This document shows, in pieces, positions 17,094-64,000 of a stretch of DNA of 64,000 nt. Numbering within the stretch: position 1 is the first letter of the stretch; every line of letters starts with the position of its first letter. A program made the translations under genes and the position numbers. Below the pieces are notes generated by a model. It was not told the DNA's origin and made no database searches. It saw nothing but the letters and a program-made list of their open reading frames with translations. The stretch comes from Lytechinus pictus (lineage: Eukaryota): positions 26,538,001 to 26,602,000 of the forward strand of contig NC_087245.1 in assembly GCF_037042905.1 (NCBI RefSeq). Direction: 5' to 3'.

Positions 17094-18467
17094 TTAAGCT
17101 GTAGAGTCTTGGTTTGAGATCCGTAAATATCGGCAGTCTTTAAGTTCATCAAATATATCCCCCAGGGATTGTGTCTTGGACATGGACGTACAAGCAACAT
17201 CAGCCCTTTGTGTGCTGTTGAACGGGAATGATTTGCTTTGCAACGCTCCTCGAGCTTTGCGAACACCATCCTGCAAGGAAGTACCTCTGGAATGACGTCG
17301 GATTTCCTCGATGTGTACCAGCTCACCAACTACTTGTGACACGCTCCGCCTAGGTGTCGAGGCAAAGGTTTGTTTCATGATACACGGAGAGGATTCGGTG
17401 TGAGATGCGCGTCGAAATGACGCATTTTGGTTGTGACGAGCACCGACGACGCTGCGCGGTGATTCGTTCGGAGACAAAGGTGGAGACATGATTTGACTGT
17501 CAGACTGGACACTACGACGTCCCATGTATGATGGGTGTCGTAGAGGAGGCAAGTTAACTGATGATGTACGATGCAGTAAAAGCTCTTGGTTGCTACGAGT
17601 TCCCGTTGTGTTTGTCAAGAAGGCAGGCTCGTGAGAGCTATGCCGTCTGGAAGGTCTCATCCCAGGTGAAGTGGTCACTGGTTTAACGATGTCCGAAGTG
17701 CGTCGACGTCTCGTCATTAGTTTCGCACGCTCGTCCCCGATATGCGATGTCGACCTCAGATTCAAATTAGTCTGCGAATGCCTTCTAAGTAAATGTGGTG
17801 ACGACTCAACTCTTGAGTGGTTTGGTTTATGGTCCAAGACAGTGTTGTCATTGTCCTCGTTCACATCTTCATTGGTCACCATTTCCCCAATCATTCCAAG
17901 TTCTCGTCCGGTGCAGAAGTTTGGCAGGTCTGTGACTGGAATCGAAGCTGCGTCTGCGGCAATACTTTCATCACTGAAATCACCTTTCGGTTCTGTTGCT
18001 AGCTCCACATCAAAATTTGGACCGACTTTATCAATGGACGCTGGTGACGAGTAGCACCGGCTAAGTGATACCTGTGACGGCGCCCCATCGCTTGATTTAC
18101 TTGGGCGACGCGGTAACTGCGCCGTTTTCAAACGTCCAGCAGAATTTGCTCGCGAAGAAGGTCCCGAGAAGAGATTGGTTATATCATCTGAACTTCCCGA
18201 TGAGTGTAGGTTGGCTATTTCTTGACGCGACTGCGTCATTCTCTGGTGTTCTTTTCGTCGTACGGAGTCAAACATCCGGACGGCGTGGCGACGCATTTCA
18301 CTCGTCTCCGAGTCTAGTTGGTTCATTCGGGATCGCATTTCTTTGGACAATGATTGAAGATTCTCCTCAAGTTTGCGTTGTTCCTTGATACTCGATTGAT
18401 GAAGACTCACAGCTCGGGCACCAACCACTGATGAAGCACTGATTTCTTGGTCGAATGGATATGCCAT
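17094..18467 (-). CDS. Uncharacterised 457-aa Ser/Arg-rich protein with N-terminal coiled coil and C-terminal DELKDCRYLR motif; CDS within one exon
   Basis: Long, GC- and CpG-rich ORF. A strong acceptor TTTCATGTTTTCATTTTCAG puts the exon start at 18486, followed by ACG-ATG-G (MAYPFDQ...). The upstream part of the 530-aa ORF call is intronic. Confidence 0.8.
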   Translation of the reverse strand: MAYPFDQEISASSVVGARAVSLHQSSIKEQRKLEENLQSLSKEMRSRMNQLDSETSEMRRHAVRMFDSVRRKEHQRMTQSRQEIANLHSSGSSDDITNLFSGPSSRANSAGRLKTAQLPRRPSKSSDGAPSQVSLSRCYSSPASIDKVGPNFDVELATEPKGDFSDESIAADAASIPVTDLPNFCTGRELGMIGEMVTNEDVNEDNDNTVLDHKPNHSRVESSPHLLRRHSQTNLNLRSTSHIGDERAKLMTRRRRTSDIVKPVTTSPGMRPSRRHSSHEPAFLTNTTGTRSNQELLLHRTSSVNLPPLRHPSYMGRRSVQSDSQIMSPPLSPNESPRSVVGARHNQNASFRRASHTESSPCIMKQTFASTPRRSVSQVVGELVHIEEIRRHSRGTSLQDGVRKARGALQSKSFPFNSTQRADVACTSMSKTQSLGDIFDELKDCRYLRISNQDSTA

Positions 18468-19519
18468 CGTCCTTAATTGTCTAGCTCTGAAAATGAAAAC
18501 ATGAAAGAGACGGATATAAATTACCTTGAAAGGAGAGTTTGTTATAATGAAATAATCATGGGTGTTTAAATGGAAGAGTTGAATGAAAAATATTTCGATC
18601 AATCGTCTCCTTTTTCGTGCCGTCCAAATCAGTTGAATTTTGCTAGCCTTTAAAATGTTTAATATATATATTTGCTTGACAGCCAATCACGGCTCGCCAT
18701 TTAGCGTCCATTGTCTGGTTACGGTTCTATTATACATTTATATTGTTTTGCTCTAGTGTTTTAGTCTTTCATTCGATTTTACTCCGATGAGTGCATGTCG
18801 AAAAGCTTCAGCATGTCAGTTTTTAAGGCTATTTTACGATTAACAATATATATATTCCCTTCTGTAAATTCATGGGGATGATGACAATTCAAAGTGTAAA
18901 AATATTATGTAATCAGTATCACATTGCCTAAGAATTATTGCTGTCCGAAACCATATATATTTCTCCAACGTGAGATTTAAAAAAAAGAATTTTGAATCCT
19001 GAGAATAACCTATATCAATGTCAATTTTATCTGATTATGATAGAGATTGGAGATTATTATGAAACATTTCGATTCGCAGCATTTTACTGAAATGTATTAT
19101 TTCCGATTTGAAATTGTTGAACAATGTCGCCATCTTTTATCGGAGGGGGGGGGCGCTTCAGCTAATGCACATAGAACTAGGCCTGTCACCCAACAAACTA
19201 AATGATTTGGACATCACGAGTAATGCAAGAAGATTAGATAAGTGAAACACGACATACGGTCAATGAAATTATTGCAAATTAGGTGTACAATAATTGCTTA
19301 TTATGACGTAATCCTAGGACACATCATTTTCCTTTATTTTACTCTAATTATCAAAGATGATAATTATTCGCTAATTATGTGTACGCAGCTCTTTTGCATT
19401 CTGCCAACTATTAGTATGATTAGTATTGCTATAATTGTAGTCACTGTTGCCCATAGGTGGCGTCATTATTGATTGGGAGACAGAGCAAGCAAGACGACCA
19501 GGACTGGTGCCCAACTAAT

Positions 19520-46657: not shown

Positions 46658-48193
46658 CTAAGGTTTAAAGTTTAGGGTTCACTCAAACATGAAATGTACA
46701 CACTATTGTGTGATCTTGTTGAAACATCCAAGCAGTCTGGAAAAATGGTGTCAAAGATGCTCTTGTATTTCGTTGTTATACAATTTCAAATTTCGGCAGA
46801 ATGAAGAAAAAGAATTACTGTTTCAGATAAGCACATTTTCAAGTGTTTACTTTCTGAAGATTAAAACCAAATTACTATTTGGGTTATTTTCAGAGATCCT
46901 TCTCTGGCCACTTATTGGTGGGACATCTGGGCCCCGTCTTACAAAGAGTTGCGATTGATCTCATCAATCGTACCTCTATGGAAATCTATCAGTGTCATAA
47001 TTTTTTTGCAGGAAATTTGCACAATGTTACCTTTGTTTACAAAGGACATTGTGCAAATTTCCTGCAAAAAAATTTTTTAAGACAACAATGAATGCATGAA
47101 TATACATCATAGTTAGAAAATATTTTTGAACAAACATGCATGATAGATGTTTATGTTGCTGGCCATCCATAGTTGTGGTTGATTGGATCGATCGCAACTC
47201 TTAGTAAGACGGCCCTTGTCACAATTGCATATGCATCATTTTATCTGGCAGTATGCCTTAACATTGCTCCTTCGCATATGATGAAGGAACCATTTGATAA
47301 AATCAACTTCAAACTTTTCAAATTACCACTTTTTAGGTAGTGATCAAATAAGTTTTGTGATATCAAGCTCAGATGAAAACATAAGTTCACAGAGGTAATT
47401 CCACACCTAGAATCTGAGTTTGTAGAGAACTAAAGAACAAAATGATGGACCAATTTTAAGCTTTGCTCATGTATGCATAATGGTCTGAAAGTGAACTGTA
47501 ATACAAAATTGAATTTGGGTTTTCTCATGGTTTACTGAAGAACCATTGAATAACTTCAAACTTTCTTCCTGTATGCATGTAATTGATGATGATCTAATCA
47601 GATATTAAGTTCATGGGTCAAAGGTCTAATCAGATTTTAAGGCCATGGGTCAAAAGTGATTCAGGTCAATCACAAAGAAAGCTCATTCTCACAATAACTT
47701 AATAGCTCCAAGAAACAACAAACTCCATCATGTATGCAAATTTCATAAAATATGAACATCCGACCCTCCTATATGTGGGACCTTCATGAAATTTTCTGTC
47801 TCTGATTTCTTGTTCTATTGACAGTCTGTAATGTTCTCAAAGGACCTTGACTTGGTCGGTTTATGAAGTGAAGTAAGACTTGAGAAAGATGGGGGTTGGA
47901 CGTACAAAAAGGTTGATCATTTCATGGAATTGCCCGTAAAGGAGGGTTCCATGGCGTGCTCCGGCGACAATTGCTACGCTGTATTAAAATTCAATCTACT
48001 GATTGAATGACCAACTTCAACCCTTGATTTAACACTATACCCTATCCTAAACCTAACATAAAACCCTATTGCAACCCTGGCCCTAACTCTATATCTTATA
48101 AGAAATAAATCCTGGAGCAATTGTTTCCGGAGCAAATGTCATGTCACCTAAAGGAGTGATGATGGGGAGGGGGGGAGATAGAGAGATATAAAT

Positions 48194-49012
48194 GAAGAGT
48201 TTAGTTGCAAAAGGGGTTAGGTCCACTTTTTACCATTCCGAGAAAAACCATGTTTTTTATTCTCACTTACTGCATTACTCTTGATGTACTACCCTATCAT
48301 GTGAACATAAAATTGGGTATAAAAGAAATCTACCTGTCTTCATTTTTTTTCTATATATTATTTTGAAAATTATCATTGTGGACCTAACCCCTTTTGTAAC
48401 TAAACTGAAATGAATCCAATCTATTTTTATTAAGAAAGTGATTTTTCTTTGCCACTTTTATTCACGTTTTCATGTGAATTTCAAATTTTTGTTGTTTTCA
48501 TCAGAAACACTAAAAATATAGAGGTTTTGAGACAGTAAACAATAAAAAATTATGAACAATGGACCTAACCCCTTTTGACAAATGAGCTATTCAGAATAGT
48601 TTGTTTGCAAAAGGGGTTAGGTCCACTCTCCAATATTGCAATATTCTTATGCGAAACTTAATTGCAATATTGCAATATTCTTATGCGAAATTAAATTTTT
48701 ATGATACCCTACCATGAGAACATAAAATTGGGTATAAAAGAAATCTACCTGTCTTCATATTTTTTAAAATATTCTTTTCCAAAAAAAATTTGCGTGGACC
48801 TAACCCCTTTTGCAACAAAACTGAAATAGACCTAATAACCCCTTTTGAAAAAAAAAGTGATTTTTCTTTGCCATTTTAGATCACTTTTTAATGGGAATTT
48901 CAACTTTTCTTTGGTATCATCTTATAGAGCTACTAAAAATCTATACATTGAGACAAAAAAAAATCAAATTTGATGAAAAATGGACCTAACCCCTTTTGCA
49001 AGTGAGCTCTTC
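48194..49012. mobile_element. Head-to-tail dimer of a ~400-bp TIR element with 4-bp TSD AAAT
   Basis: Units 48194-48592 and 48594-49012, each bounded by ...GCAAAAGGGGTTAGGTCCA / TGGACCTAACCCCTTTTG...; AAAT flanks only the outer ends. Confidence 0.8.
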
Positions 49013-49374
49013 AAATACTAACACCTCTTTATATAGTTTGTTGTAGACTTGCAGATACAAATGAACATTTGATTGTATCTTCTGTTATGGGGTACCAATT
49101 CTATATTGAAACTATTTGAAATTTTAGAAATTATGTGTGTATTTTAGATCTCATAGTGGCGAAGGCATCATCTTCTACCTGATGCAGTCGAGAATCCATT
49201 AATTTCTCTCTATGTTTTTGTGGGAGTGTTTGATGTTTTTGAAGCTATAGGTTGAGAAGAAAAGGTAGAGCTTCTGAACATCTGAACTTGAAAGTATAGC
49301 TTTTGCATTCTGAATGACAAATGAATAAGAAGGGACAAAATTCTGAAGTCTTTGATATTTGTTTTAAAAATCAG

Positions 49375-49700: not shown

Positions 49701-50084
49701 GTGAGTTCATTCTATTCTGGATTCCTAACATGGTTTATAATCAAAATTTATGTAATGGTCAAGTCCACCCCAACAACAGGTTGATTTGAGAAAAATTGAA
49801 AATCTAAAGTGAAAGAAGCGTAGCAATGGAAAACTTTTTTTAAATATTTGCTGTAAAAAGAGAAAACTATTTTTTTAATTGTTAGCATGTCATTTTCAAA
49901 AGCCAAATTTGCAGTATGTATGCAGAATTTATTCATTTCCTGTGGCCAGATATTTGTGTAGTTTCAGTGTGTTGTCAAGCACTTCTGTAATTATGCTGCA
50001 TTTACTGTAAGGGCACTTTAATAGAAACTTCCGATAAAGAGGCATTAGTACGGAGCCCGGGAAGAGACGTGGTAAAAATATTTT

Positions 50085-50630
50085 TATCTCGTTAAAACGA
50101 GATAGTTATCTCGTTTTAATGAGATAGTATCTCGTTAAAACGACATAGTATCTCGTTTTAATGAGATAGTTATCTCGTTTTAATAATAATAATAATAATA
50201 ATAGTTGGATTTATAAAGCGCTTTTTGCCAGAGGATACAAAGCGCTGCTATTATTACCCCGGCTTTAGCTCGAGCTACCATCACCGGCGCTCAGTGCATG
50301 CAAGGAATTACTCCTGCCGGGTACCCATTCACCTCACCTGGGTCGAGTGCAGCACAGTGTGGATAAATTTCTTGCTGAAGGAAAATACGCCATGGCTACG
50401 ATTCGAACACACGACCCTCTGTTTCAAAGGCGAGAGTCAGAACCACTAGACCACGACGCACCCACTGAGATAGTATCTCGTTTTAATGAGATAGTATCTC
50501 GTTAAAACGACATAGTATCTCGTTAAAACGAGATAGTTATCTCGTTTTAATGAGATAGTATCTCGTTAAAACGACATCGTATCTCGTTTTAATGAGATAG
50601 TTATCTCGTTTTAATGAGATAGTATCTCGT
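50085..50630. repeat. Subterminal array of 21-22 bp palindromic units TATCTCGTT(AA/TT)AA(C/T)GAGATA
   Basis: About 12 tandem units, interrupted by a SINE. Confidence 0.9.
50184..50465 (-). mobile_element. Full-length tRNA-derived SINE nested in the subterminal array
   Basis: Splits a repeat unit (TTTTAA|TGAGATAG); has an (AAT)n tail, the shared core and a tRNA-like head. Confidence 0.88.
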
Positions 50631-53600
50631 ATAAGTCCATTGCATACTGGAACCGGGTGGTCCCTGTATTAAGCCTATGGGAGTGAGAGAATTCAGTAGT
50701 CCACGGGTTAACAACATAATACCCGCGAGGCTAGACTAGACTGCGCGCGCTGGCGCTAGCGCGCTCGCTGCTTAATGCAGTAATAGCGTATATAGCCAGG
50801 CAGCCATGCCATGCCAGGCCTTGTACGTATGTACTACTAAGTTACGTCTACGGTAGATCGACTGAATTCAACCAGAAGTTGCCGGTTGCAATCGCGAGGA
50901 TTGAAGGTTAGTTCACTTCTTTTACTTATTTATGGCCGGGTCATTCAATGTAAAAGTGAACAAACAGCTAATTTAACAGATTTGCTCTTTTTCGCGATCA
51001 GTTCTAGATCTGTGTAACGTTAATTTTAAGACTGCTCAATTAGCAGACTGCAGTCCCCATCGGAAGCGCCCTGTTCTGGGGCCCGACGCTTCAGGCTCTC
51101 CGCGGTCTGGGTCTGGGACCCTGGCCTTGGGCTTGGCCTGCTGGGAAGGCTGTGGTCATTTTGCAAGCTAGAGACAAAGTAAACTAGATCTAGACGTTAC
51201 TTTTTTACGTGCTCGCATTGCAGTAGAAGTGTGGAATTTTCGTATGTATAGATCTAGACTAGTCTAGATATACGAGGAAAAAGCAAGCAAATGTCAGAAT
51301 TGTAAAAAAAAAAAAAACCCTCATATTCCACGGCTATTGATGTCTAGTGTGTAGAGTCTAGATCTAGATTCAACTATGCAATATGCAATACACCGCAACT
51401 TAGTATAGATCTAGATCTATTTCAGCGGCGCGGCAGATCCAGGATTTTTCAAAAGGGAGGGCCGAAGTTGGACCGAAATATCAGCCTCTATTTGGCGTTG
51501 ACGGTTGGATCCGCTGAGATTGCATATCTGGCTTCTCTAAATGCCTCTGAGCTCTGTCATTTTGTCAAAAGAATGCCCCCAGAAAGATGGTTATTCCTGT
51601 CTAGGCCGAAGTCTGCTCAGCCTCAGGGCCTCATCAGGCACCAGAAAAATTCGCTGACCAGTGAAAAAAGTGGAAAAAATGATCCTTAGCTTTTTCAAGT
51701 GTCTGTTTAGATCTAGTCTAGATCTACCCAAAATATTCCTTGACAAGCAAACAAAAAGGAGAAGGGGAGGGCCATGGCCGATTCCCCCCCCCCCCCTTGA
51801 TTCCGCCACAGTCTAGATTCTATGACTATGTTGTTCAAATTATTTGCTAGGTACCAGTTTACTAGTAGGTTTATTGTCACCCTTAGTCCTTACACTTCTA
51901 GCCATGTAATAACATTAACAGTAACTGGGATTTTGTCAAAATGTTTACATTTACGTATCTAGAGGCTAATAAAAAAACATCAGTGCAACACTGTTGAGTA
52001 TGTTGAAGCACTAAAAATAGAGGATTTATTTATTTAATAAATTTACTGTCTTCATATTAACTTTCATTGCTAACATGTTGAGCTATTTGATAAAATTATT
52101 TTTTCATTTTTGTTTTCTCAGTAAATTTACAATATTTTAATGTTTAAATGTTGCTGAAATAGTTACTTGACAAATGCAAAGTAAGATTAATAAACAAAAA
52201 CCAGTGTGCATGAAAAGTTTATTTAACCAGTTCTTTGGGGGGAAAAACACTGTTGCCTGTGCGTTTTAGATAGGTAGCCTATACACCATGGGGCTAACGT
52301 AGTGAGCCCCATGCCTGCAGGGGTGGTTTATTGTACTAGTAACTACGAGTGTAGAAAATCAATAAGTTTTGAAATATTATAAATAAGGACTAGACCTAGA
52401 CTGCATGCATGGCTGGAATACTCCCCCAGGGAGTGGAGAATGTGCATACATTGTGTGCGGGCAATCCTGATTGAATCCGATGACCGGGGACGGGCTAATA
52501 ATAATCTGTAAACTGCTTAGATACATTATTAATGTCTTACTCTTAAGCACTATAAAAAAGTGGATTATTATTATTATTGATTGTGTTTTCAATATTTTAA
52601 TTTTGTATTCATTGTATTTCTTCAGTAACTTAATGCCTGGCTAAAACATCGACAAACTTAAACTAATGTCATACATAAGTGTTAATACATGTGTAGGATC
52701 TACATCTATATAAGTTAGTTGGGAGTAGACTCTAGACCCTATATCATACATGTATGTATATGGTCCATCCATGCATGGACCACATACTCATCTCCCATCT
52801 TCCAAAAAAGAATAGCTAATGATTTTGGTAACAAAAAAATTGCCTCACTAATCATCACTGCTTCTTTGTTTTCTGTCTTCAGCGTGTTCTTCGGCAACAC
52901 TGAGGCAGCATTTGAGAAGAAATATCCCTCAGGCTCAGCTCACCAATTGAAGGACAAGGACAAGGGTTCTATCCAGAGTTTCCAAGTAAGATAATTCCTC
53001 TTATAATCCTATTCAGTGTAAGTGTTAAAAAAAGAAACTGAATTGAAATAAGAAATTAAATTAGATAGAAGAATAGGCAGCAAGATGAGGGGTAATGGAA
53101 TGTAAGTTCTAGGAAAAAGTTTTGAAAACACTTGTAACGATTTCTGGATCTGGATGTATACGATGCTGAACCAGTTGGTATATGATTGCAGCAGATGAGA
53201 GAGGGCGCAAAGAATAGATAGTTGAATCGTAGGTGGCTCTTCTCAATCTTAGACTTGAACACCTTTGATGATGGACAGACTATTGATTACTTATTAGAGT
53301 ACAGACTCAGTAATTTTGAATCCAAAGGACCTGTAGATGGTACGTACTGAACTGATAGACTCTTAGAGCTGTAGCGTACCTTTAGGATAGACCTAAACAA
53401 TCCAATTTTCTGGGCATTAGTTGGCACATAACCTTATTCTTGAAACTTATGACCTAATTCTTGTGCAGCCCTGATATGGGTATTAATTGCACAGGTCACT
53501 TACTGACTTTTTCTTAAATTCTCTTTTTAGGCACAATTTTTGTAGGGTGTTTTCTGCAGCTGTGACCCATGCATACACACCCTAGCCTCCAGCACAGCAT

Positions 53601-54302
53601 TGACCACCCAGCTAATCTCATTCAGGTATGACTTTCTGGGATTGATTTGAAGCTCAATGAACAGAAGGCTCAAGATTAGCTATTGTCACCTTCAACAGGG
53701 GTGGGTTCATTAGGATCAGGGGTGGGGGCTAAATGGAAAAGGGAACAGATTTATCAATTTTTTTACATGTTGGCCTTGAGGTGTAGATGTGCAAGAAACT
53801 TTTTTAAGAATGGGGGAAAATGTGTTGCCATGGTAACGACATATTATGCCAACAATTGAGGGGAAAATGCATTTTCAAATTAAACTTGGCACACATGTTT
53901 GCTTTGAAGTGTAGATGTGTAGGACACATTTTGGGACAGTGACAGAATGTGTGTTGCCATGGTAACGGCATATTATTCCAAAAACTGAAAAACAAAACAT
54001 ACTGTGACGCAATGAATAACTGCGCGGGGCGGGGGTATTAATCACCTTCAGTGATATTTCTAGTTATTATTATGATTATTATGAGTATGACTAAAATGTT
54101 ATTATTTTACTAATAGCATTATTGTTATATTGTTATAATATTTTGTTATTTTTTATCTTTCTAGGTTCCTTCATACATATGCTCTGGCACATCGACATCA
54201 GATTGATTTCCAATAGTCGGTTGACTTGGTGGGAAAGCTTAGAACTAATCAAAGCCAAGATCAGCATTAGCATCAGCGTCAGCATTCCACTGAACACAGT
54301 CA

Positions 54303-55124
54303 ATGGCTGGCCGTGATCATTTGATCAGTTTGTACTTTAACCTGGGAATGTCCTATAAGGAAATCATTTATATCTTAGCACAAGAACATGGCATAGAACT
54401 TAGTGAAAGACATCTCAAGAGGATATTAGCTCTGAATAACTTTCGTCGCCGACATTACACTAACTTAGCTGATGTGGTACAGTTTATTGAGCATGAGCTT
54501 CAAGGGTCAGGTCAGTTGCACGGATACCGCATGATGCATGCTAAATGCAGACAGAATGGTATGCATGTGAGAAAGGAGGATGTTCGTGTCATTTTAAAGT
54601 ATCTGGATCCAGAAGGCGTAGCAGCCAGAACAGCTAGACGACTAACCAGACGTTCTTACTTTGCTAAAGGACCAAATCATGTGTGGCACGTTGATGGATA
54701 TGATAAACTAAAGCCGTTTGGATTATGCATCAGTGGATGCATAGATGGCTATTCACGAAAAGTAATGTGGTTGAATGTGTATAATACAAACAATGATCCA
54801 AAATTAGTAGGAGGATACTTCTTGGAAACTGTTATGGAATGTGGTGGCTTCCCTTGCAAAGTTCGTGCTGATCGTGGCACCGAAAATGGACACATTTGTG
54901 CCTTTCAAAACTTCTTTCATCATAATTATGACTTAGAACGAAGAGTGTACATCGAAGGATCAAGCACTAGCAATCAAAGGATTGAATACTGGTGGGCATT
55001 TTTGCGGAAGGAATGTACACATTTTTGGATTGAGACCTTCAGAAGGCTGTCAGACAGAGGGGACTTCACTGGAGACTTTCTAGACAAGAATCTTGTTCAG
55101 TTCTGTTTCATGAGCATTCTACAG
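54303..55124 (+). CDS. DDE integrase-core transposase, exon 1 (Clr5/HTH-like N-terminus, catalytic D131, D190, E228)
   Basis: Motifs WHVDGYDKLKPFG..ISGCIDGYSR, VRADRGTEN and SNQRIEYWW; donor CAG|GTGAGC, phase 0. Confidence 0.9.
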
Positions 55125-55131
55125 GTGAGCA

Positions 55132-56286
55132 CCCTACCAGAAAGAACAGTCATCATGATGACTGATTTACAAGTTATTGATGCAATGGAGGCATCAGAGT
55201 CATCAAAAAGGCAGCAATTGGAACCCTTGAAACCCTTGAAATAATAGTTCTAAATAACATTAGATTTAATGGCAAATAGGCATCAAACAGTTATCAAAAG
55301 GCATAATTTGGCATCAGACATCATACAGACATCAGGAGCCATCATTTGGCATCAGGCATCATAAGTCATCATTGGCATCAGAAGTCATCAAATTGGCATT
55401 AGAGAAATGATATCAGGAAAATGGTCATACATGTAAATCATTTAGGTTTTTTTTTTCTCCTGACCTGCTTCGACCCATACAATGTAACATTTGACCCTGA
55501 CTGACAAATACATGTAAATTGTTCTGAATTATCAAAGTTTCTTAAGTAGAATTATGCAAAATATAAACAAATAAAACAAAAGGTTGCAAAAACAAAGAAA
55601 TACATAAGATATTCATTAAACAATACATTATTTGACAAAGAAATATTTTGCTACTGCATTTTTTTTTGTTAAGAAAATTGTTACACATGTCATAAGGAAT
55701 GTTCAACCTTTTTAAATTGATTTAGATGGCAAAATATGATTTTCTGCATAAATTTGCATAATTAGTTAAAAATAGAGTTTTTGAAAAATTTATTATACGG
55801 TCTTGTAGTTTGCATCAGACTGTAAATTGGTGGAAAATGTTGCATCGATCCACGGCCGAGATCAGAAAGGGCGTGGTTGCTCCAGCCCCCCCCCCCCATG
55901 ATGTTGTTTGTATATGTACACGTCCTGAGTCAAGTCAGATAAACTTCCATTCATAACCTGTTCATAGTTGTGCTATCAAAAAGGCTTCCTTTTCTAAGGC
56001 TTTTTGAGTGACTAAAACTTCAATTTTTGGAGGCATCATAAAGCCTTGTCCTAGAAACTTTCACAGTGATGACTAATGATGCCTTCTTCTGAACAAATAA
56101 TGCCGTGATGCCTGAATGATGACTGTGATGCCAGTTTCTGATGGTGCCTAATCTGATGACCATTGATGCCTCCTGATGACCAAATGGTGCCTATTGCTTA
56201 CCGTACCAAAATGATGTTTTTTGATGCCCAAATGATGTCTTACTTTACTAGTGATGCCCAAATGATAATTAATTTTTCTGGCCAGG
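55132..56286. mobile_element. Probable non-autonomous element in the transposase intron
   Basis: GGCATCA repeats on the left (55190-55400) mirrored by TGATGCC repeats on the right (56080-56260); ends CCTACCAGAAA / TTTCTGGCCAGG. Confidence 0.5.
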
Positions 56287-57114
56287 CATTTCACTCTTCT
56301 TAATGATTTAGAAAAGCACTGGTTACCATGCATCTTTGTGACAGAACTTGGAATCTAGTCATTGAAAAAATTGTGTTTCTTATTACATTTACAATATATT
56401 TTATTTTATGAGGGTTGGGGGCATTCACCCCACATGCTGGTACATGTACATGTAGGTATATGTGCCACAAGTACAGCAGAGGCAAAATTAGGGGGCTCAC
56501 CAAAAATGGGGGTTCACTGGAACTAAAGATCCAAGGAGTTCAGACCTCAAAATGTGCTTTGGAACTACATCTAAATCTGACTTAACTATGTAAAGGCATG
56601 TTGAATAATGTAATGCTTTGGAACAGTTTACTTGCCACAAAAGCTGGATATGCAAAGAACTCTTATCCATGTGAATTACATTCCTCACATGGCAGCCGCT
56701 CCTCTGAGGCAGCCCGGTGTCACATTTGAAGGTTTAGGATAAAAGACTAAGCATGATTCAATGGAATTGAAAAGGTGAAGTATTGTCACTTATTGTCAAC
56801 ATTTGTGGGCTCTGGAATAAAAATATGAAAATTTGCCATGTAATTAATCTGAAAGTTACATGCATCAGAATTTTTAGGGCACAAAATTGGGGCATTTCAG
56901 TAGCATATGTGTACCGTACAATATATTGTGAGTGCACAATACAATTAACTGCAGAGGACTTAGACCAAGAATATGGCCATAATATATCAGGTTCTTAATC
57001 AAGTAGTTCTATATTGCCGTAATTGGATTACTAATAACTTAAAGTTGTATTTATCAGATTCGTTGCACACAGTAATTTCACCATGGTAGTATTGTTTCAC
57101 AAATTATTTTACAG

Positions 57115-57444
57115 ACAGAGCTAGACAAGATGGCTGATATATGGAACAATCACCGTATCCGACCCTCTGTGAATCTCCATGTACCAAGTGGCCATCCAAT
57201 GATGATGTATCATACTCCACAAATCTGGGGTACTGAAGATCAGCTTTGCACCAATGTTGATGATGACGATCTGGCTGCATGCATAAGTGATGCTGTATTC
57301 CGATCTACCATACCATGCGACAAAGATGTATATGACTTGTGTGTGTATATTATGAAAAGAGACAACCTTGATCAACCAATGGAAGTCCAGGATGCCTTAG
57401 AATTGTACATCCATCTGAAGCAGGAGATTACTGTGTTGCTTTAA
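57115..57444 (+). CDS. DDE transposase, exon 2 (TELDKMADIWNNHRIRPS...PSGHP); spliced product 383 aa
   Basis: Acceptor TTATTTTACAG; in frame with exon 1; WN.H.IR motif typical of the integrase C-terminal region. Confidence 0.85.
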   Translation, partial: TELDKMADIWNNHRIRPSVNLHVPSGHPMMMYHTPQIWGTEDQLCTNVDDDDLAACISDAVFRSTIPCDKDVYDLCVYIMKRDNLDQPMEVQDALELYIHLKQEITVLL

Positions 57445-59520
57445 ATATATGCATTCAGGAAATTAAGCTGAAACCCCTGAAGCAAAATATATCTTAACCC
57501 TCAATAGCCCGGGGGGGGGGGGGGCCCCCCCCCCTCGAAATTTTTCGTGATAATTTTTTAACGCAAAAAGATCTCGCAATGAAATTTCATATGAAAGTAC
57601 ATGGTATCAAAGTACAGCCTAAGTTCGATTTCGGAGTATGTAGGTCAAAGGTCATAGCTCATTAAATATGCGAAAATGGTTTCCGTTCGATAACTTTAGT
57701 AATGTTTGACGGATTTTAATGAAATTTGATATTCCATAAAGTAGTAAACTTTCTGTACATCCAATCTCCAGGTATTAGTAACTTCCTTGCGTAGTAATAT
57801 AATAGTAAGTCTACTGGAGGTAACTTGTTTTAACGTATAGGTAATTTGTACTCGGCGAGGGGATGCGACGCTTAGCGTTGCTCTTGTTTTTACTGCATTA
57901 CTACTTTCTGAACCAATTCACCCGTTTGAATTTGTGTGTTTTGAACTTGTACCTTTCTCTTCTTCATGCTTCCTCGAGGAGCCGATGTATTTGCATTCTA
58001 ATGTGAACCTGTGTCATCATTACAAATTTTCAAAATACTGCATCTTCTTTTTGCTCAAGAATTGTGCACCTTGTATTCTTTGTCAAGGAGATCAGTACAT
58101 GTACAACCAGACATTAAAGCTTTAAAATCGTCTGGAAGTCCCCTTCAAGTACAATATATATACCTTAAAGTTAGGAAGCTAAGATACAATGGTTGCAAGT
58201 CGACTTGTTACATCTTCATCATCGTAATAACCACCATCACAATATTGACAACTAAAATTACAATAAACATCAATCCACAATTTAGGGAATTACCTGAATT
58301 GCCTTGTGGTGGCAGAGACTCAAAATGTTATTTTCAGGGGGGGGGGGAATTCTATTATCAAATTGCCAAGAACAAGTTAATATGAAGGTACATAAAAAGT
58401 GATGCATTACATTAAGAATAAAAAAACAAACACATTCTTGATCAATGCATTGTCAATTTGTGCTGGAAAAGATTTTTCACTCAGTTATTGCCAATGTAAG
58501 GATTTACCAATTGTATGCTTTGAAATTTCTGTTGAAAAGACATTTTATTGAATTTGAACAATTACATGTCTGAAATTGTGATTTGTTTTTTTTTACTTGT
58601 CTTCGAATTTCTATAAATTTCCATCTAATTGTTACATAACAGTCATTTCTCTGCTCCACAGTGGTACTTCATCTTCAATAGATATAGATGTAAAGGTGAA
58701 AATAGGCACCCACACACATGAAAAGCAACGTTACAAGAAGAAGAAAAAATTGACACAGAAGGCAAAAACATGGACATCCAACACTATTGTTGTCACATAA
58801 GACATTTGGGAAACGAGCAAGATGAATGACAGGTATAACTTTAATTGCAAGTAAACAAAAATAACACTTCGACAACAGACTGATTTATACAAACACAGTC
58901 CTTTGATTTCAGGAATCAGAACATGGAATCAGTGAGGAATCCCTCAACATCTTATTGAAATATGTAGAGGTTAATATCTTTTGTATGCTTTCTGAATGAG
59001 ATAGGTCAAGTTTTGTTTTGATTACCAAGAAAAATGACCTTTTGTGATTTTTTCCCCCTAAATTTTGTATATTATTGCTGTTCGCCTATGACATCACAAA
59101 TTCTTATCAAGAGAGGGCGACGTGGAATTTATCAAATTTCAAGAAATCATAACTCTTGAATGGATCATCTAATTTTGCTCAAACTTTCACTAATCTGCTT
59201 AAAAGTTAAATATTTATTTTAATGATGTATGGGTATAATTGTCCTTAAAGTGACAGCTGGAATATTAAAATACTTACATGACCTTTGATTTTGGCTAAAT
59301 ATGGGGGTCCCCATGCATGAACAATATACCCACCAAATTTTTTTTTTTTGTTAATTATTCACATTTTTGTAAGCACTATGGACAGATGACATTTTTATCT
59401 CTTAGTTTTACTCCACCTGGGTGGCTCTACAAAGATGGCTAGCCATAGGGAACATAATAGTATACCTATTATGTAATGGGAGCTTGCTCATCTGTCGGGA
59501 CCAATTAAAAAAAGTCTTCA

Positions 59521-60200
59521 TTGAATAATTGATTGAATTTATTTAACCACGGTAAAAAACTTAAACATAAATCATACAGAAATTACATTAAATAGAACTA
59601 CACAGAGAAACAACCTAGTAATAATAAGCATAATTAATTAAGCATGATAATGAAATGAATACGATAACAATGAGAGAAACATAATAAAAACAAGAAAACC
59701 TAACAATACATGTAAGATGTCTGTGTCATTTGTATAGTAACTGAAGGGAAAAGGAGAACAAAGATGAGGGAAGAAGAGGACGCGAGAGCATATAGGGGGA
59801 AGTCTGAGGAGAAAGAGGAAGAGAAGGGGAGAACATAAGACAGAGAGAGAGAGGAAGAGAAAGAGGGAGGTGGAGGTTGGGGGGAGACTGACACTTTAAT
59901 GGTACAATGCATCTACCTCTGCTTCAAAGAGCTTACGATTTGAGAAAAGATACTCTTTCAGGCAACACGTATAATTGGACACCCGTATAGATAAATCCCA
60001 TTGTTTGTTTTGAGTTTTCCTAAAGATAGTTTATGGCCGGAATTTCTGAGCCCGTAAGAACATCCTTTTAAAGAAATGTGTTCGCATAATGACGTAGGAA
60101 GCAATTTGTAAACAAGTTTGAAGATCTATCCTAGGGCTTTCCTTTTCCAACGTATTTGGACATGGTCAATTTTACCAAGAGAATAGAGCAGATCAGTACT
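59521..60200 (-). mobile_element. Probable LINE (CR1/L2-like) 3' remnant
   Basis: Minus-strand tail AAATAAATTCAATCAATTATTCAA, a pyrimidine-rich 3'UTR-like tract and a decayed coding-like stretch. Confidence 0.3.
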
Positions 60201-61664
60201 AAAAAGACTTATCAATGGACAAAACTGTTCTTCTCATGTAATAACCATGAACTAAAAAACAAGTGCATCGGGCACTGATATAAGTTAACAATTAATACAA
60301 TACATCTAACTAGTACAGAAAAATTATGAAACAAAACAATGTCAGAAAAATGTAACATCATTAACAAGAGCCCTGTGGGGATAGATGCTCTTCTCAGCAT
60401 GCTAATTAATTAACTTGACGCTATTTCTTGTCAAGCCCCCACATGTATATCATCACTTCAAACTGAACAATTCAATTTTGATAAAAATGTAAAAAAAGTT
60501 CCCAGATGCGGCAGGATGGACAGCGCACAACTGACAGGATGCGAGTCCTTGGCTCAGGTGAGCTGGAAATGTAACAATAATTTTAAAAGAAAAATACCTA
60601 ACAAAAGACAACTACAAGGGCAAACTCAAAACTTGCTACTTTGTTCTTGACCGTGAACAAAATGGATGATTTCAGGAAATTATTTTTTCCCAGAATTTCA
60701 GGGTTACGGTTATTCCACTCTAGCCCATTCCTCCAAAGTAACCTGTAATATAACAAATATATTCATATCTGGAAACAGGAGTACATGTGAAAATTGGCAA
60801 TTTTACATTAAATTTTGCAATTATTATTCATTTTGATTAATGTTATATCCATTTTAATTTTTTTTTCAGACTATGAGAGGAAAAAGATAATAATTGTTGC
60901 CAATTTGAGGAGTGAAAGCTGATTAATTCAGACCTGAAGAAAGCTCTGTATCTCTATGGGTTAAATTAAACTTCACTAAGCTGGAGGAATAACTGACAAA
61001 ACCTAGGCAATGTTATTAGCAACCATATAATGCATTGTAAAAATCGTCATGAATTTTGATTAAAAAATTCCTGTTCTAAAAACCGTATTCACTGCCATTG
61101 AGCGATGTCACAGCATTTAAAAGAATCTATAACAAGGAATTTAAAAAGAATTAAGAAAACTAAAATAATCATTAGAGAAGGGAAAAAAAGTGCAAGTAAA
61201 GGTGAACTTGCTATTACATGTAATGCATGTCACACCATGCAACGTGTACTGTGCATTGATGGTAGGCCATTATTATGACAGGGACGTTAGGGACCTGCTA
61301 CAGAATAATTTGAAACTATTCGTACTTCATGCAGACATCTGGACGAGTTTTAAAGCAAGACAATCAAATGTTTAACATTCCACTGCCAATAGACTAAAGT
61401 TAGATATTGGAGTCAAATGAAAGCTATGAATTTTCTTTATGAAATACCATACTTCATATTTATATTTTAAATCATGAAAGAAATTTAGTATTGACATTTT
61501 AAGGATCATTTCCTCCAAAGTTTGTGTCATATCGATTGACAATACATGTTGAAGATCTATTTAAACACTTAAAAACATCTCTTCGAAAATACAGGTTAAC
61601 ACCAATTTTCCTAACTTTGAAGTATGCGCGAGACAAACCCAAAACAACAAACACAAAAAGAAAA

Positions 61665-63855
61665 TCATGCAATGTCCATGGCGAGGTAGCCACTTGAAAG
61701 TACTGCTTGCCACTCTGATCTGAAATCTCTATATGAAGTATAACTTGTTGGCAGCTCAAGCATTGGTCCGCATGTGTGAGCCACTGGCCTTCGAGCTAAT
61801 CCAGTGGTATTTGTGAATTGTACAGAAATCTGTGTGGCAGTCATTACAGGCGAAGCTGTCAAAAATCTCAACAATGTGCCTAGACCTTCTTCGTTTTGGG
61901 CTCGGATGTATTGCTGCAAAAATCTAAGCGACTGGGCCTCCTCCCTTGTTTGAGGATTTGCGGCAAGTAAATCACAGACTTTCTTAGGAGTAGGTTTTAG
62001 AGAGCCATACATTATCTTGATAGAGTTAACATCTGGAAAAGCTGAGTGTAGGGCATCTCTGACCACCTTTCTCATGCCCTCCAGTGCATACATACTCTTC
62101 TGTATGATAACTTTGTGGGCCAGTTGGTAGATTGTGGGCCGGACATTTTCCCCTTTAGGGATAGAGTGACATCCCTCACGGTCTAGAATGTCTTCAAATA
62201 TGTCTTGCTCGTCATCTGACAGAACATCTCCTTGTAGAGCCTGCTTCACTGTAGCTCTTTCAAGTGGACTAAGAAACAGGAGGAATGTTTTAAGTAAGTC
62301 CTCAGTTGACACTGTCTCCTCTCCAAACATGACGGCTATTAGAAAGGCTGGGGCCAATTGCACAGGGAAAATGTTATGGTCAGAGTATCCCTTTGACAAA
62401 ATCCTCCCTATGGACAGCCATTCCTCCAAACCGTATTCAGGGTTCAATGAAGGCACCCTGTAATCCTCGCCATCTGCAGATGTATTAAAAAAGGAGTTCC
62501 AAAATGCACTATATGCTTCTCTAGATACTCCTCTGGCATCCACTCCTAACTCCTCTACAAAAGTTACCTTCAACTGGATACTAAGGATCTCAGGCGTCTT
62601 GAAAAGTGCAATCATTTCAGCTTGGATATTGCTTCGATGTAAACGGATTTGCAGAGCTTTTGTATCTGAAGGAATTCCCGCATCATCTAACTGAAGATCA
62701 TAATCTATGGCAGCTTGTTGAGGGTTTGCACGTTGAATTTGAGCATCAGCTTGTTGTTGGCTTCTTGGTTGAGTGTGATCGCCATTTTCAGTAGCTTGAT
62801 GTAGGTTTCCTGGTTGAGTTTGAGCACGATTGTCAGTGGCTTGATGTAGGTTTCCTGGTTGAGTTTGAGCACGATTGTCAGTGGCTTGTTGTAGGTTTCC
62901 TGGTTGAGCTTGAGCACGATTGTCAGTGGATTGTTGTAGGTTTCCTGGTTGAGTTTGAGCACGATTGTCAGTAGCTAGTGTTTGGTTTCTTGGTTGAGTG
63001 TGAGCACCATTGTCAGTGGCTTGTGCTTGGTTTGGAGGTTGAATTTCGGCACTAATATTAGTGGATCGTTGTGGGTTTACAGATTGACCTTCAAAGTCCG
63101 AGAATCCCAAATGTATTGGTGGTAATTCACAATCATCATCTATCATGCAACCTCCAACATATTCAAGGTTTAATGGTAATGTTTCATCTAGCTGAGATTG
63201 TGTGCCTTCATCACTTTTTCTCCCAAACTGGACAACATAACAGTCACTTGAATCACTTTCTTCTTCTGGCTGGTTTTCATTTTGATTGTCTGAAGAGGTT
63301 TCTGTCGATGGTTGGTCTCTATTTTTTTTTGGGGTGCACATGTATAGTCTCAAAACACGTGATTTCGCATTTTCATACAGTTCGCCTACAGTGGAATTCC
63401 CCATCTCACATCCTCTAAAATCTTGAATGTCCACTTCGTAGTCTTCAAATTTTACCCCTTTTGGATTTACCATCAGGGAAAAATAGCCCTTTTGCAGTTG
63501 CAAGAAGGTTGTCTAGTCCTTCGCTCTTGTTTGCTCTTATTTCTCTTGTCCCTCCTCCGCCTTGACTCCTCACTTGCTTTAATTCCTTTGTTGCATAGTC
63601 AAAATCCATCCACCCTACTTCTAATTTTCGTGTATCTTTGTGTGCATTGTTACGTTTTTTTGAGGGGGGATTGTCATCAACTGACTTTTTTTTTCTTGAA
63701 AGTCTTGTTCTCAGCCTTTCCAGAAGGCTTGACAATGGTTTTTCGTTTTTAGTTTGACACCTGCAGAATGCCCTTGCAGCGAGTCTATCACCGAAGGCAG
63801 GGAGGTAGTCCTTCAAGCATTCATCATCCATTTCAAGCAAGGCATGGCAGTCAAT
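61665..63855 (-). CDS. HECT-domain E3 ubiquitin ligase (G2E3-like HECT) with SAM-like N-terminus; one frameshift at ~63450; first exon outside window
   Basis: HECT motifs LKVTFVEELGVDARGVSREAY, LLRFLTAS and PVAHTCGPMLELP (Cys codon 61770-61772). ORFs 63445-63945 and 61665-63503 join if one A is removed. Acceptor TTCCTTCTCAG puts the exon start at 63855. Confidence 0.85.
62751..63020 (-). repeat. Coding tandem repeat, 6 x 45 bp (ATDNRAQTQPGNLQQ)
   Basis: Seen directly in the DNA and in the translation. Confidence 0.92.
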
Positions 63856-64000
63856 CTGAGAAGGAATTAAAAAAAAAACACATCTTTCAGATGGGAGATT
63901 AGAAGCGAATGCTCTTCTATAATACACATGGTAACCATACTTCAATAAACCCCAAATTACTCTTTAACAAGGGCAACGCAAAGCGTAGCATCCTCTAGCC

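Follow-up and report, generated by a model that had tools for sequence, protein, structure and literature searches.

We report a two-gene DNA transposon in the sea urchin Lytechinus pictus that begins at position 50049 of the 64,000-nucleotide stretch analyzed here (the window; positions 26,538,001 to 26,602,000 of the forward strand of the 44.3-Mb contig NC_087245.1, in an 812-Mb genome) and encodes, tail to tail on opposite strands, a DDE transposase and a HECT-type ubiquitin ligase (E3). Our preferred reading, to which we give a probability of about 0.55, is that the ligase docks on the transposase and controls or licenses transposition, ubiquitinating either the transposase or the surrounding chromatin. 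The kind of element is the known IS3EU/GingerRoot; of most interest are the interface predicted between transposase and ligase and an apparent transfer of the element between urchins.

Structure and classification of the element

The original prediction described the left end of an IS3EU-like transposon, a TACGG terminus with a palindromic array, and expected the inverted terminus, followed by CATTAG, downstream of 64000. The left end (TACGGAGCCCGGG) was seen at 50049, directly after CATTAG; in the DNA downstream of the window (locus L031; all positions past 64000 are window-equivalent coordinates), the right end was found at 69971-69994, matches the predicted terminus at 22 of 24 bases, is unique at a threshold of at least 17 of 24 bases in the 93 kb scanned, and is again followed by CATTAG. 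The element therefore extends from 50049 to 69994 (19,946 bp), with TACGG..CCGTA ends, a duplicated CATTAG, and inverted repeats of about 2 kb; its right end lies beyond the HECT gene, not to the left of it. The original prediction expected an SNX19 intron at this place; the host gene is a sorting nexin whose PXA domain is encoded upstream of the element and whose Nexin_C domain is encoded downstream, and joining the exons on either side of the element preserves the reading frame. The features are:

49701-64000, continuing to window-equivalent 70613, plus strand: intron of the PXA/Nexin_C sorting nexin gene that holds the element
50043-50048, plus strand: left target-site duplication CATTAG
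50049-53763, plus strand: left terminal inverted repeat (about 2.06 kb common to the right arm, and two inserts)
50085-50630, no strand: array of imperfect palindromes of about 21 bp, split by the next feature; candidate transposase-binding sites
50180-50465, minus strand: high-copy insert of 286 bp resembling a short interspersed element (SINE), with a simple-repeat tail
50632-53625, plus strand: terminal segment rich in CpG, with candidate untranslated exons; both arms have it, and it is predicted to hold a shared promoter
51092-52531, no strand: 1,440-bp segment of the left arm only
54303-55124, plus strand: transposase exon 1, with a Clr5-like N-terminus and integrase core rva_4
57115-57444, plus strand: transposase exon 2, with the C-terminal domain that forms part of the predicted ligase-docking surface
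61665-63855, minus strand: E3 coding exon 2, with the second half of the SAM-like domain, a basic stretch, the ubiquitin-like domain, a linker with 45-bp repeats, and the HECT domain with its AHTC cysteine
63856-64000, minus strand: E3 intron, leaving the window
window-equivalent 66027-65923, minus strand, beyond the window: E3 coding exon 1
window-equivalent 67935-69994, beyond the window: right inverted repeat, ending CCGTA
window-equivalent 69995-70000, beyond the window: right target-site duplication CATTAG

The spliced 383-residue transposase is intact, as first read, and identical to an NCBI protein model of L. pictus; it matches rva_4 at E 1.5e-32, and its catalytic triad (D131, D190, and E228) is invariant in all 67 homologues. 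The convergent HECT gene was likewise where the original prediction put it, about 4.2 kb downstream on the minus strand (PF00632, E 3.5e-9; the two stop codons are 4,220 bp apart). The ligase has the domain order SAM-like, ubiquitin-like, HECT.

IS3EU/GingerRoot elements are defined by TA..TA termini (TAYGG..CCRTA; PMC10045372, PMC12730594), have been described as two-protein elements (PMC8232023), and have been called structurally and functionally unexplored (PMC11934779). The present element fits this group, judged by its TACGG..CCGTA termini, 6-bp duplication, integrase-type DDE transposase, and two oppositely oriented genes; the first Asp of the triad, placed in this group 100-300 residues from the N-terminus, is D131. 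It differs in its dimensions, with inverted repeats of about 2 kb rather than 100-150 bp and a length of 19.9 kb rather than the 3.9-12.9 kb given for GingerRoot (PMC6839031), and in its second gene, which encodes a SAM-UBL-HECT ligase (UBL, ubiquitin-like), whereas the IS3EU/GingerRoot accounts, in their accessible portions, name no HECT protein. The term 'HECT' has no match in the main texts of PMC10045372, PMC12730594, PMC6839031, PMC11934779, PMC4455052, PMC9700323, and bioRxiv 2021.09.26.461848, and a literature search judged by titles and the starts of abstracts found neither a HECT gene in IS3EU nor a transfer between these urchins; the pairing may already be on record in Repbase, Kojima 2019, or supplements. 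In fungal IS3EU elements, which have the same ends, a protein-modifying enzyme also lies opposite the transposase; it is an alpha-kinase, not a ligase, and a TET/JBP gene, of which we saw no counterpart here, lies between the two (PMC12730594, whose accessible portion describes no interaction of the partners).

Linkage and conservation of the ligase

The two-gene mobile system that had been proposed is borne out by copies elsewhere. A sister family in L. pictus (54% identity in the transposase, about 50% in HECT) occupies 14 loci, with a convergent HECT gene at 13 and both ends at 12; 11 of these 12 have a 6-bp duplication (10 of them distinct; the copies on C28 and C29 mirror each other). An open HECT exon of 596-613 residues is kept in seven sister loci, and one sister copy of 6.9 kb is without HECT. 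Four sister copies, on C2, C3 (28.53 Mb), C17, and C116, share an internal deletion that keeps the N-terminal part of the ligase and breaks HECT; three of the four carry their own duplications, so these copies probably moved in the deleted state.

The same linkage was found in a scan of metagenomes that returned 79 HECT loci, several of which are copies of one family, so not all are independent. HECT is followed downstream by a transposase on the other strand in 28 of the 79, in 25 of the 33 with at least 2 kb of downstream sequence, and in 9 of the 9 with at least 5 kb; none of the 22 loci with at least 2 kb upstream has a transposase upstream of HECT, and at one locus an additional transposase is arranged differently. 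The eight of the 33 without a transposase decide nothing, because all have less than 4.9 kb downstream and the distance from HECT to the catalytic exon in the window is 6.5 kb. In five of the nine long loci, TATGG..CCATA ends and a 6-bp duplication enclose both genes. The transposase and ligase of Strongylocentrotus purpuratus have consecutive accessions (XP_030856191/192). Judged by these arrangements, the HECT gene belongs to the element; its homologues are multicopy and linked tail to tail with transposases, not single-copy, syntenic host genes. As a separate observation, L169 and L184 are different insertions with the same duplication, CGCTCG, and L165 has CGGTCG, a possible target preference of that family.

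A third IS3EU-like family (C8:2181284-2193182, that is, L195-L196; C1:8765017-8771301) has the same kind of ends as the window element, duplications at two loci, repeat arms of about 53 bp, and a transposase in a single frame of 438 codons; a second gene of another kind, with several exons, is hinted at by short frames on the plus strand.

The HECT fold is supported by PF00632 matches in 12 of 12 sequences, by Foldseek matches to the HECT domains of NEDD4, Tom1, and HUWE1 at E values of 2e-6 and up, and by agreement of a profile search against solved structures; the C-lobe of the structure model is of low confidence. As in HECT E3 ligases (HUWE1/Tom1 and the NEDD4 family), there is an AHTC motif: the ligase cysteine aligns with the AHTC/SHTC motif of HUWE1/Tom1 and is kept in 73 of the 74 loci that show the motif region (79 in total) and in all 107 proteins that show the motif (of 173). 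The position four residues from the C-terminus is mostly Met, Phe, Ile, or Leu, with Asn in 15 of 62. The ligase differs from solved HECTs, with which it shares 12-20% identity, in being mobile and multicopy and in having an N-terminal SAM-like and ubiquitin-like module that passes the cut-off of no Pfam family. The ratio of nonsynonymous to synonymous substitution rates (dN/dS) for HECT is 0.07-0.30 in 25 of the 31 pairs with dS >0.1, indicating that HECT is under purifying selection between families; from this, the fold, and the conserved cysteine, we infer an active E3.

Ubiquitin-pathway proteases are found in other transposons (OTU in Ginger1, Ulp1 in Zisupton), and the Mu transpososome is removed by ClpX. 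As here, a DDE element is linked with the ubiquitin or proteolysis pathway; in those systems, however, the protease is part of the transposase or a host machine, whereas here the element encodes a separate ligase.

The ligase gene might instead be a captured host gene or a chance neighbor, that is, Pack-type cargo with no role for the element. Selaginella GingerRoot elements capture gene fragments (PMC6839031), and the HECT gene is missing from one sister copy and from the third family; however, its position and orientation are fixed across deeply diverged elements, the ligase family comprises 1,065 clusters at 50% identity that match at E<=1e-30 (with named members in a sea cucumber and in several fish), the 26 matches in the L. 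pictus genome include no close host paralogue in single copy (three weak matches left aside), and selection on the gene is purifying. We regard passenger status as largely refuted and highly improbable.

Predicted docking and the role of the ligase

The structure model of the ligase N-terminus (89 sequences) contains a five-helix bundle and a beta-grasp domain, with predicted local distance difference test (pLDDT) values of 93-98. The bundle weakly resembles SAM domains: profile matches include the SAM domain of ANKS4B (E 0.004), USH1G (0.17), and tankyrase (1.1), the top match is a repeat protein named E8, and Pfam SAM_2 and SAM_3 each match 1 of 19 ligase sequences with weak E values. The beta-grasp domain (residues ~108-211) matches ubiquitin-like chains at Z 9.6 to 7.6, and a second search agrees. 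Against Pfam, the N-terminus matches no convincing family, and a protein atlas places it only in unnamed eukaryotic clusters. Separately, protein P0242 joins a piece of a DDE_Tnp_1_7 transposase, which we take to be piggyBac-type, to the N-terminus of this element's ligase; it may be a gene-calling fusion.

A complex of the transposase with residues 10-215 of the near-identical S. purpuratus ligase was modeled with scores of 0.87, 0.87, and 0.86 in three runs (median 0.87); the best control scored 0.44 and the others 0.00. At least 63% of the contacts agree between runs, and the partner pLDDT is at least 77. Of the solved pairs, 51 of 78 reach the score mark used, as do 2 of 108 mismatched pairs (39 of 65 and 2 of 126 for eukaryotes). 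In the model, a GDR helix of the SAM-like domain contacts transposase residues 267-278 and 336-363, and the tightest contacts are between near-invariant residues (G57-D58-R59 with Q274, F267, and R337); the SAM-like domain is predicted to dock on the C-terminal domain of the transposase. Among the 28 linked loci examined, in which those outside the trees were placed in clades by their match pattern, a ubiquitin-like module was detected next to 5 of 7 transposases of clade I and 0 of 13 of clade II that have more than 1.2 kb upstream; the two clades also have different docking helices.

Gene trees were built from partial domains of 17 of 26 pairs after dereplication (16, without L156, in the approximately unbiased (AU) tests); they include two pairs from the L. 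pictus genome for which ends were not found (C11 and C13), and in C11 the HECT gene is upstream on the same strand. The expectation of congruent trees held in part: the HECT and transposase trees share 5 of 14 splits and, among the highly supported splits, 1 of 6-7. The AU tests and a Mantel rho of 0.29 (46 of 5,000 shuffles as high) led us to reject strict co-descent of the genes. We read the ligase as a docking module matched to its own transposase and joined to an exchangeable catalytic module.

Several observations weigh against a ligase that acts through docking. HECT domains have crossed from one transposase clade to another (AU p = 0.001 and 5e-20, for groups named after the trees were seen). 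The complex score is a measure of model confidence; 7 of 44 blind neighboring pairs also reach the mark, and the control that scored 0.44 kept the partner. The interface is barely more conserved than its surroundings overall (0.60 vs 0.47 in the SAM-like domain, P = 0.058; 0.50 vs 0.50 in transposase residues 281-383). The SAM half is detected in 1 of 11 clade-I metagenome loci, and docking may not be general, because clade-II elements carry HECT without a detectable N-terminal module. The same transposase helix occurs without a SAM, ubiquitin-like, or HECT match in 6 of 6 loci (five of the third family and one other transposase locus). Six of the 31 pairs, involving L138, L141, L119/L126, and L164/L170, which we suspect to be broken copies, have dN/dS of 0.44-1.07. 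Finally, the ligase gene of the window copy is frameshifted in the assembly: relative to the 764-residue S. purpuratus protein it has one extra base near 63446, which may be decay or an assembly error, and the frame stops after about 171 residues.

The swaps of HECT domains between clades also suit a different role, in which the ligase is a free counter-silencing enzyme that acts on host silencing or chromatin proteins without the transposase, possibly serving as a decoy of Polycomb type with a SAM and a RAWUL-like domain. In fold comparison the ubiquitin-like domain scores highest against a Polycomb ubiquitin-like domain (ULD) complex (5fr6; Z 9.6, root-mean-square deviation 2.4, 79 residues aligned), followed by the C-terminal domain of Ring1B (Z 9.0); a basic stretch resembling a nuclear localization signal is present in 74 of 86 aligned rows; and fungal IS3EU elements carry the alpha-kinase and TET/JBP genes (PMC12730594). 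However, USP11 UBL (8.8) and ATG12 (8.6) tie with the Polycomb matches, so these matches show a beta-grasp fold only; the SAM profile matches are to ANKS4B, USH1G, and tankyrase, not to Polycomb SAMs; and the SAM-like domain is modeled on the transposase. A ligase that faces only the host, the view suggested by the tree swaps, was lowered by the complex model and the clade comparison, and we consider a free counter-silencing enzyme clearly less probable than a docked one. The original prediction had offered both kinds of role, control of the transposase and degradation of host silencing factors; the former gained support from the complex model and the latter is without direct support.

The predicted docking through the SAM-like domain also suits a structural accessory subunit, a protein that the transposase requires as a partner and whose ligase chemistry is secondary. 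Harbinger is a two-gene transposon with a Myb-like partner protein. The four sister copies that keep the N-terminal part of the ligase and have lost an intact HECT domain, and the description of IS3EU as two-protein elements (PMC8232023), point in this direction; the cysteine kept in 73 of 74 loci, the purifying selection on HECT, and the clade-II elements that keep HECT without a detectable N-terminal module argue against it. We judge a purely structural subunit unlikely.

Returning to the transposase-docked E3, we propose the following for a cut-and-paste element with two permanent genes. The transposase would bind the palindromic arrays, excise the element at TACGG..CCGTA, and insert it with a 6-bp duplication, as the DDE triad suggests; the ligase would be brought to the transposition complex by its SAM-like domain bound to the C-terminal domain of the transposase; and it would then ubiquitinate the transposase, limiting or disassembling it, or else nearby chromatin proteins, with a slight preference for the former. 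Both genes are probably driven from one promoter, duplicated in the 2-kb arms.

More tentatively, and with somewhat less than even confidence, we suggest a widespread lineage of animal transposons that carry their own E3 with the transposase as docking subunit or substrate, that is, a self-contained ubiquitin switch; the pair would have jumped intact between urchin genera, and many 'expanded' animal HECT genes would be this cargo. Naming the second gene of an animal IS3EU, with a specific predicted interface, makes control of the transposase or host by a transposon directly testable, and cell lines have been reported for an urchin with near-identical, apparently intact copies (PMC12521550). 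Gene-family studies may count such cargo as host adaptation; for example, a sea-cucumber paper reads 20 G2E3 copies in this way (PMC9700323), and these are candidates for the element ligase.

Probable transfer between urchins and the terminal arms

Four S. purpuratus accessions encode a transposase identical to that of L. pictus at 382 of 383 residues, and downstream of the frameshift the ligases, with their linkers, differ at 6 of 593 residues. The two species split about 40 million years ago (PMC11688612); identity at this level despite that split makes horizontal transfer likely. In 20 sequencing runs from 10 studies with five organism labels (possibly one species), 0.78-0.85 of sampled words from the element are present, and in four runs the long pieces listed carry 0.38-0.43% substitutions across 9.8-13.0 kb that take in the introns. 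For the host flank, no long piece is among those listed for the same runs, and the host exon has at least 9 and at least 8 differences within 34 bases (two runs). The element family thus very probably reached L. pictus recently by horizontal transfer, which, if true, is a rare, datable case involving two model urchins.

Contamination or mis-assembly could also account for the likeness: the assembly contains just one full-length copy, and among the listed pieces of the other runs, whose organisms are coded, none crosses the left junction. However, the same 6-bp duplication is present at both junctions, in a host intron with in-frame exons; the SINE-like insert in the left arm matches all 29 other loci with which it was compared in the L. 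pictus genome at 98.9-100% identity; and family ends number 114 genome-wide (control, 0), with all three complete short copies checked having their own 6-bp duplications. We consider an artifact improbable. After its arrival the family would have spawned short non-autonomous copies, and the full-length copy appears to have begun to decay.

Longer non-autonomous derivatives are located on C6, C13, C19, C27, and C104, and derivatives are 99-100% identical in a unique arm segment. The genes and inner arm of the element each occur once in the L. pictus genome. Fold-back copies of ~0.3-0.7 kb occur at G000:C4:534419-534872, C4:10929398-10929976, and C5:38784547-38784893, with six similar end pairs on C7, C8, C14, and C20; the three that were read are mostly palindromic array with 6-bp duplications. 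On G000:C27 (about 8,800-168,000) and C104, dozens of family ends form regularly spaced head-to-head/tail-to-tail arrays; the non-autonomous copies there may have been amplified as a satellite-like block.

The inverted-repeat arms share ~2.06 kb at 96.8-99.1% identity and are longer than the terminal array alone. The ratio of observed to expected CpG is 1.26-1.42 and 0.93-2.05 in the terminal kilobases and below 0.7 in most other bins (exceptions: 51001, 57501, and 64001-65000). Candidate untranslated exons in the left arm (donor near 50907; ~52883-52984; ~53531-53625) have the same counterparts in the right arm. From these features we infer one promoter, duplicated in both arms, that would drive both inward-facing genes. 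Immediately internal to the right arm (window-equivalent 67254-67353, L031), one of the candidate untranslated exons recurs at 77% identity, which suggests that the arms grew by copying the 5' region of the ligase gene. The near-identical elements in other organisms' sequencing runs also carry the 1,440-bp segment of the left arm, and we therefore do not regard it as a local insertion. At window position 60784, two other-organism copies have ~119 extra bases relative to the window's copy.

Elsewhere in the genome, more than 20 degenerate transposase-like matches are densely packed on one strand (G000:C4:22,365,000-22,400,000). A search for tRNA genes between 49000 and 64000 found none. Outside the element, the window contains a 530-codon open frame on the minus strand (17094-18686) with no Pfam family above cut-off and, ahead of the host exon that immediately precedes the transposon, a small unrelated repeat-rich element with direct and inverted repeats (48193-49013).

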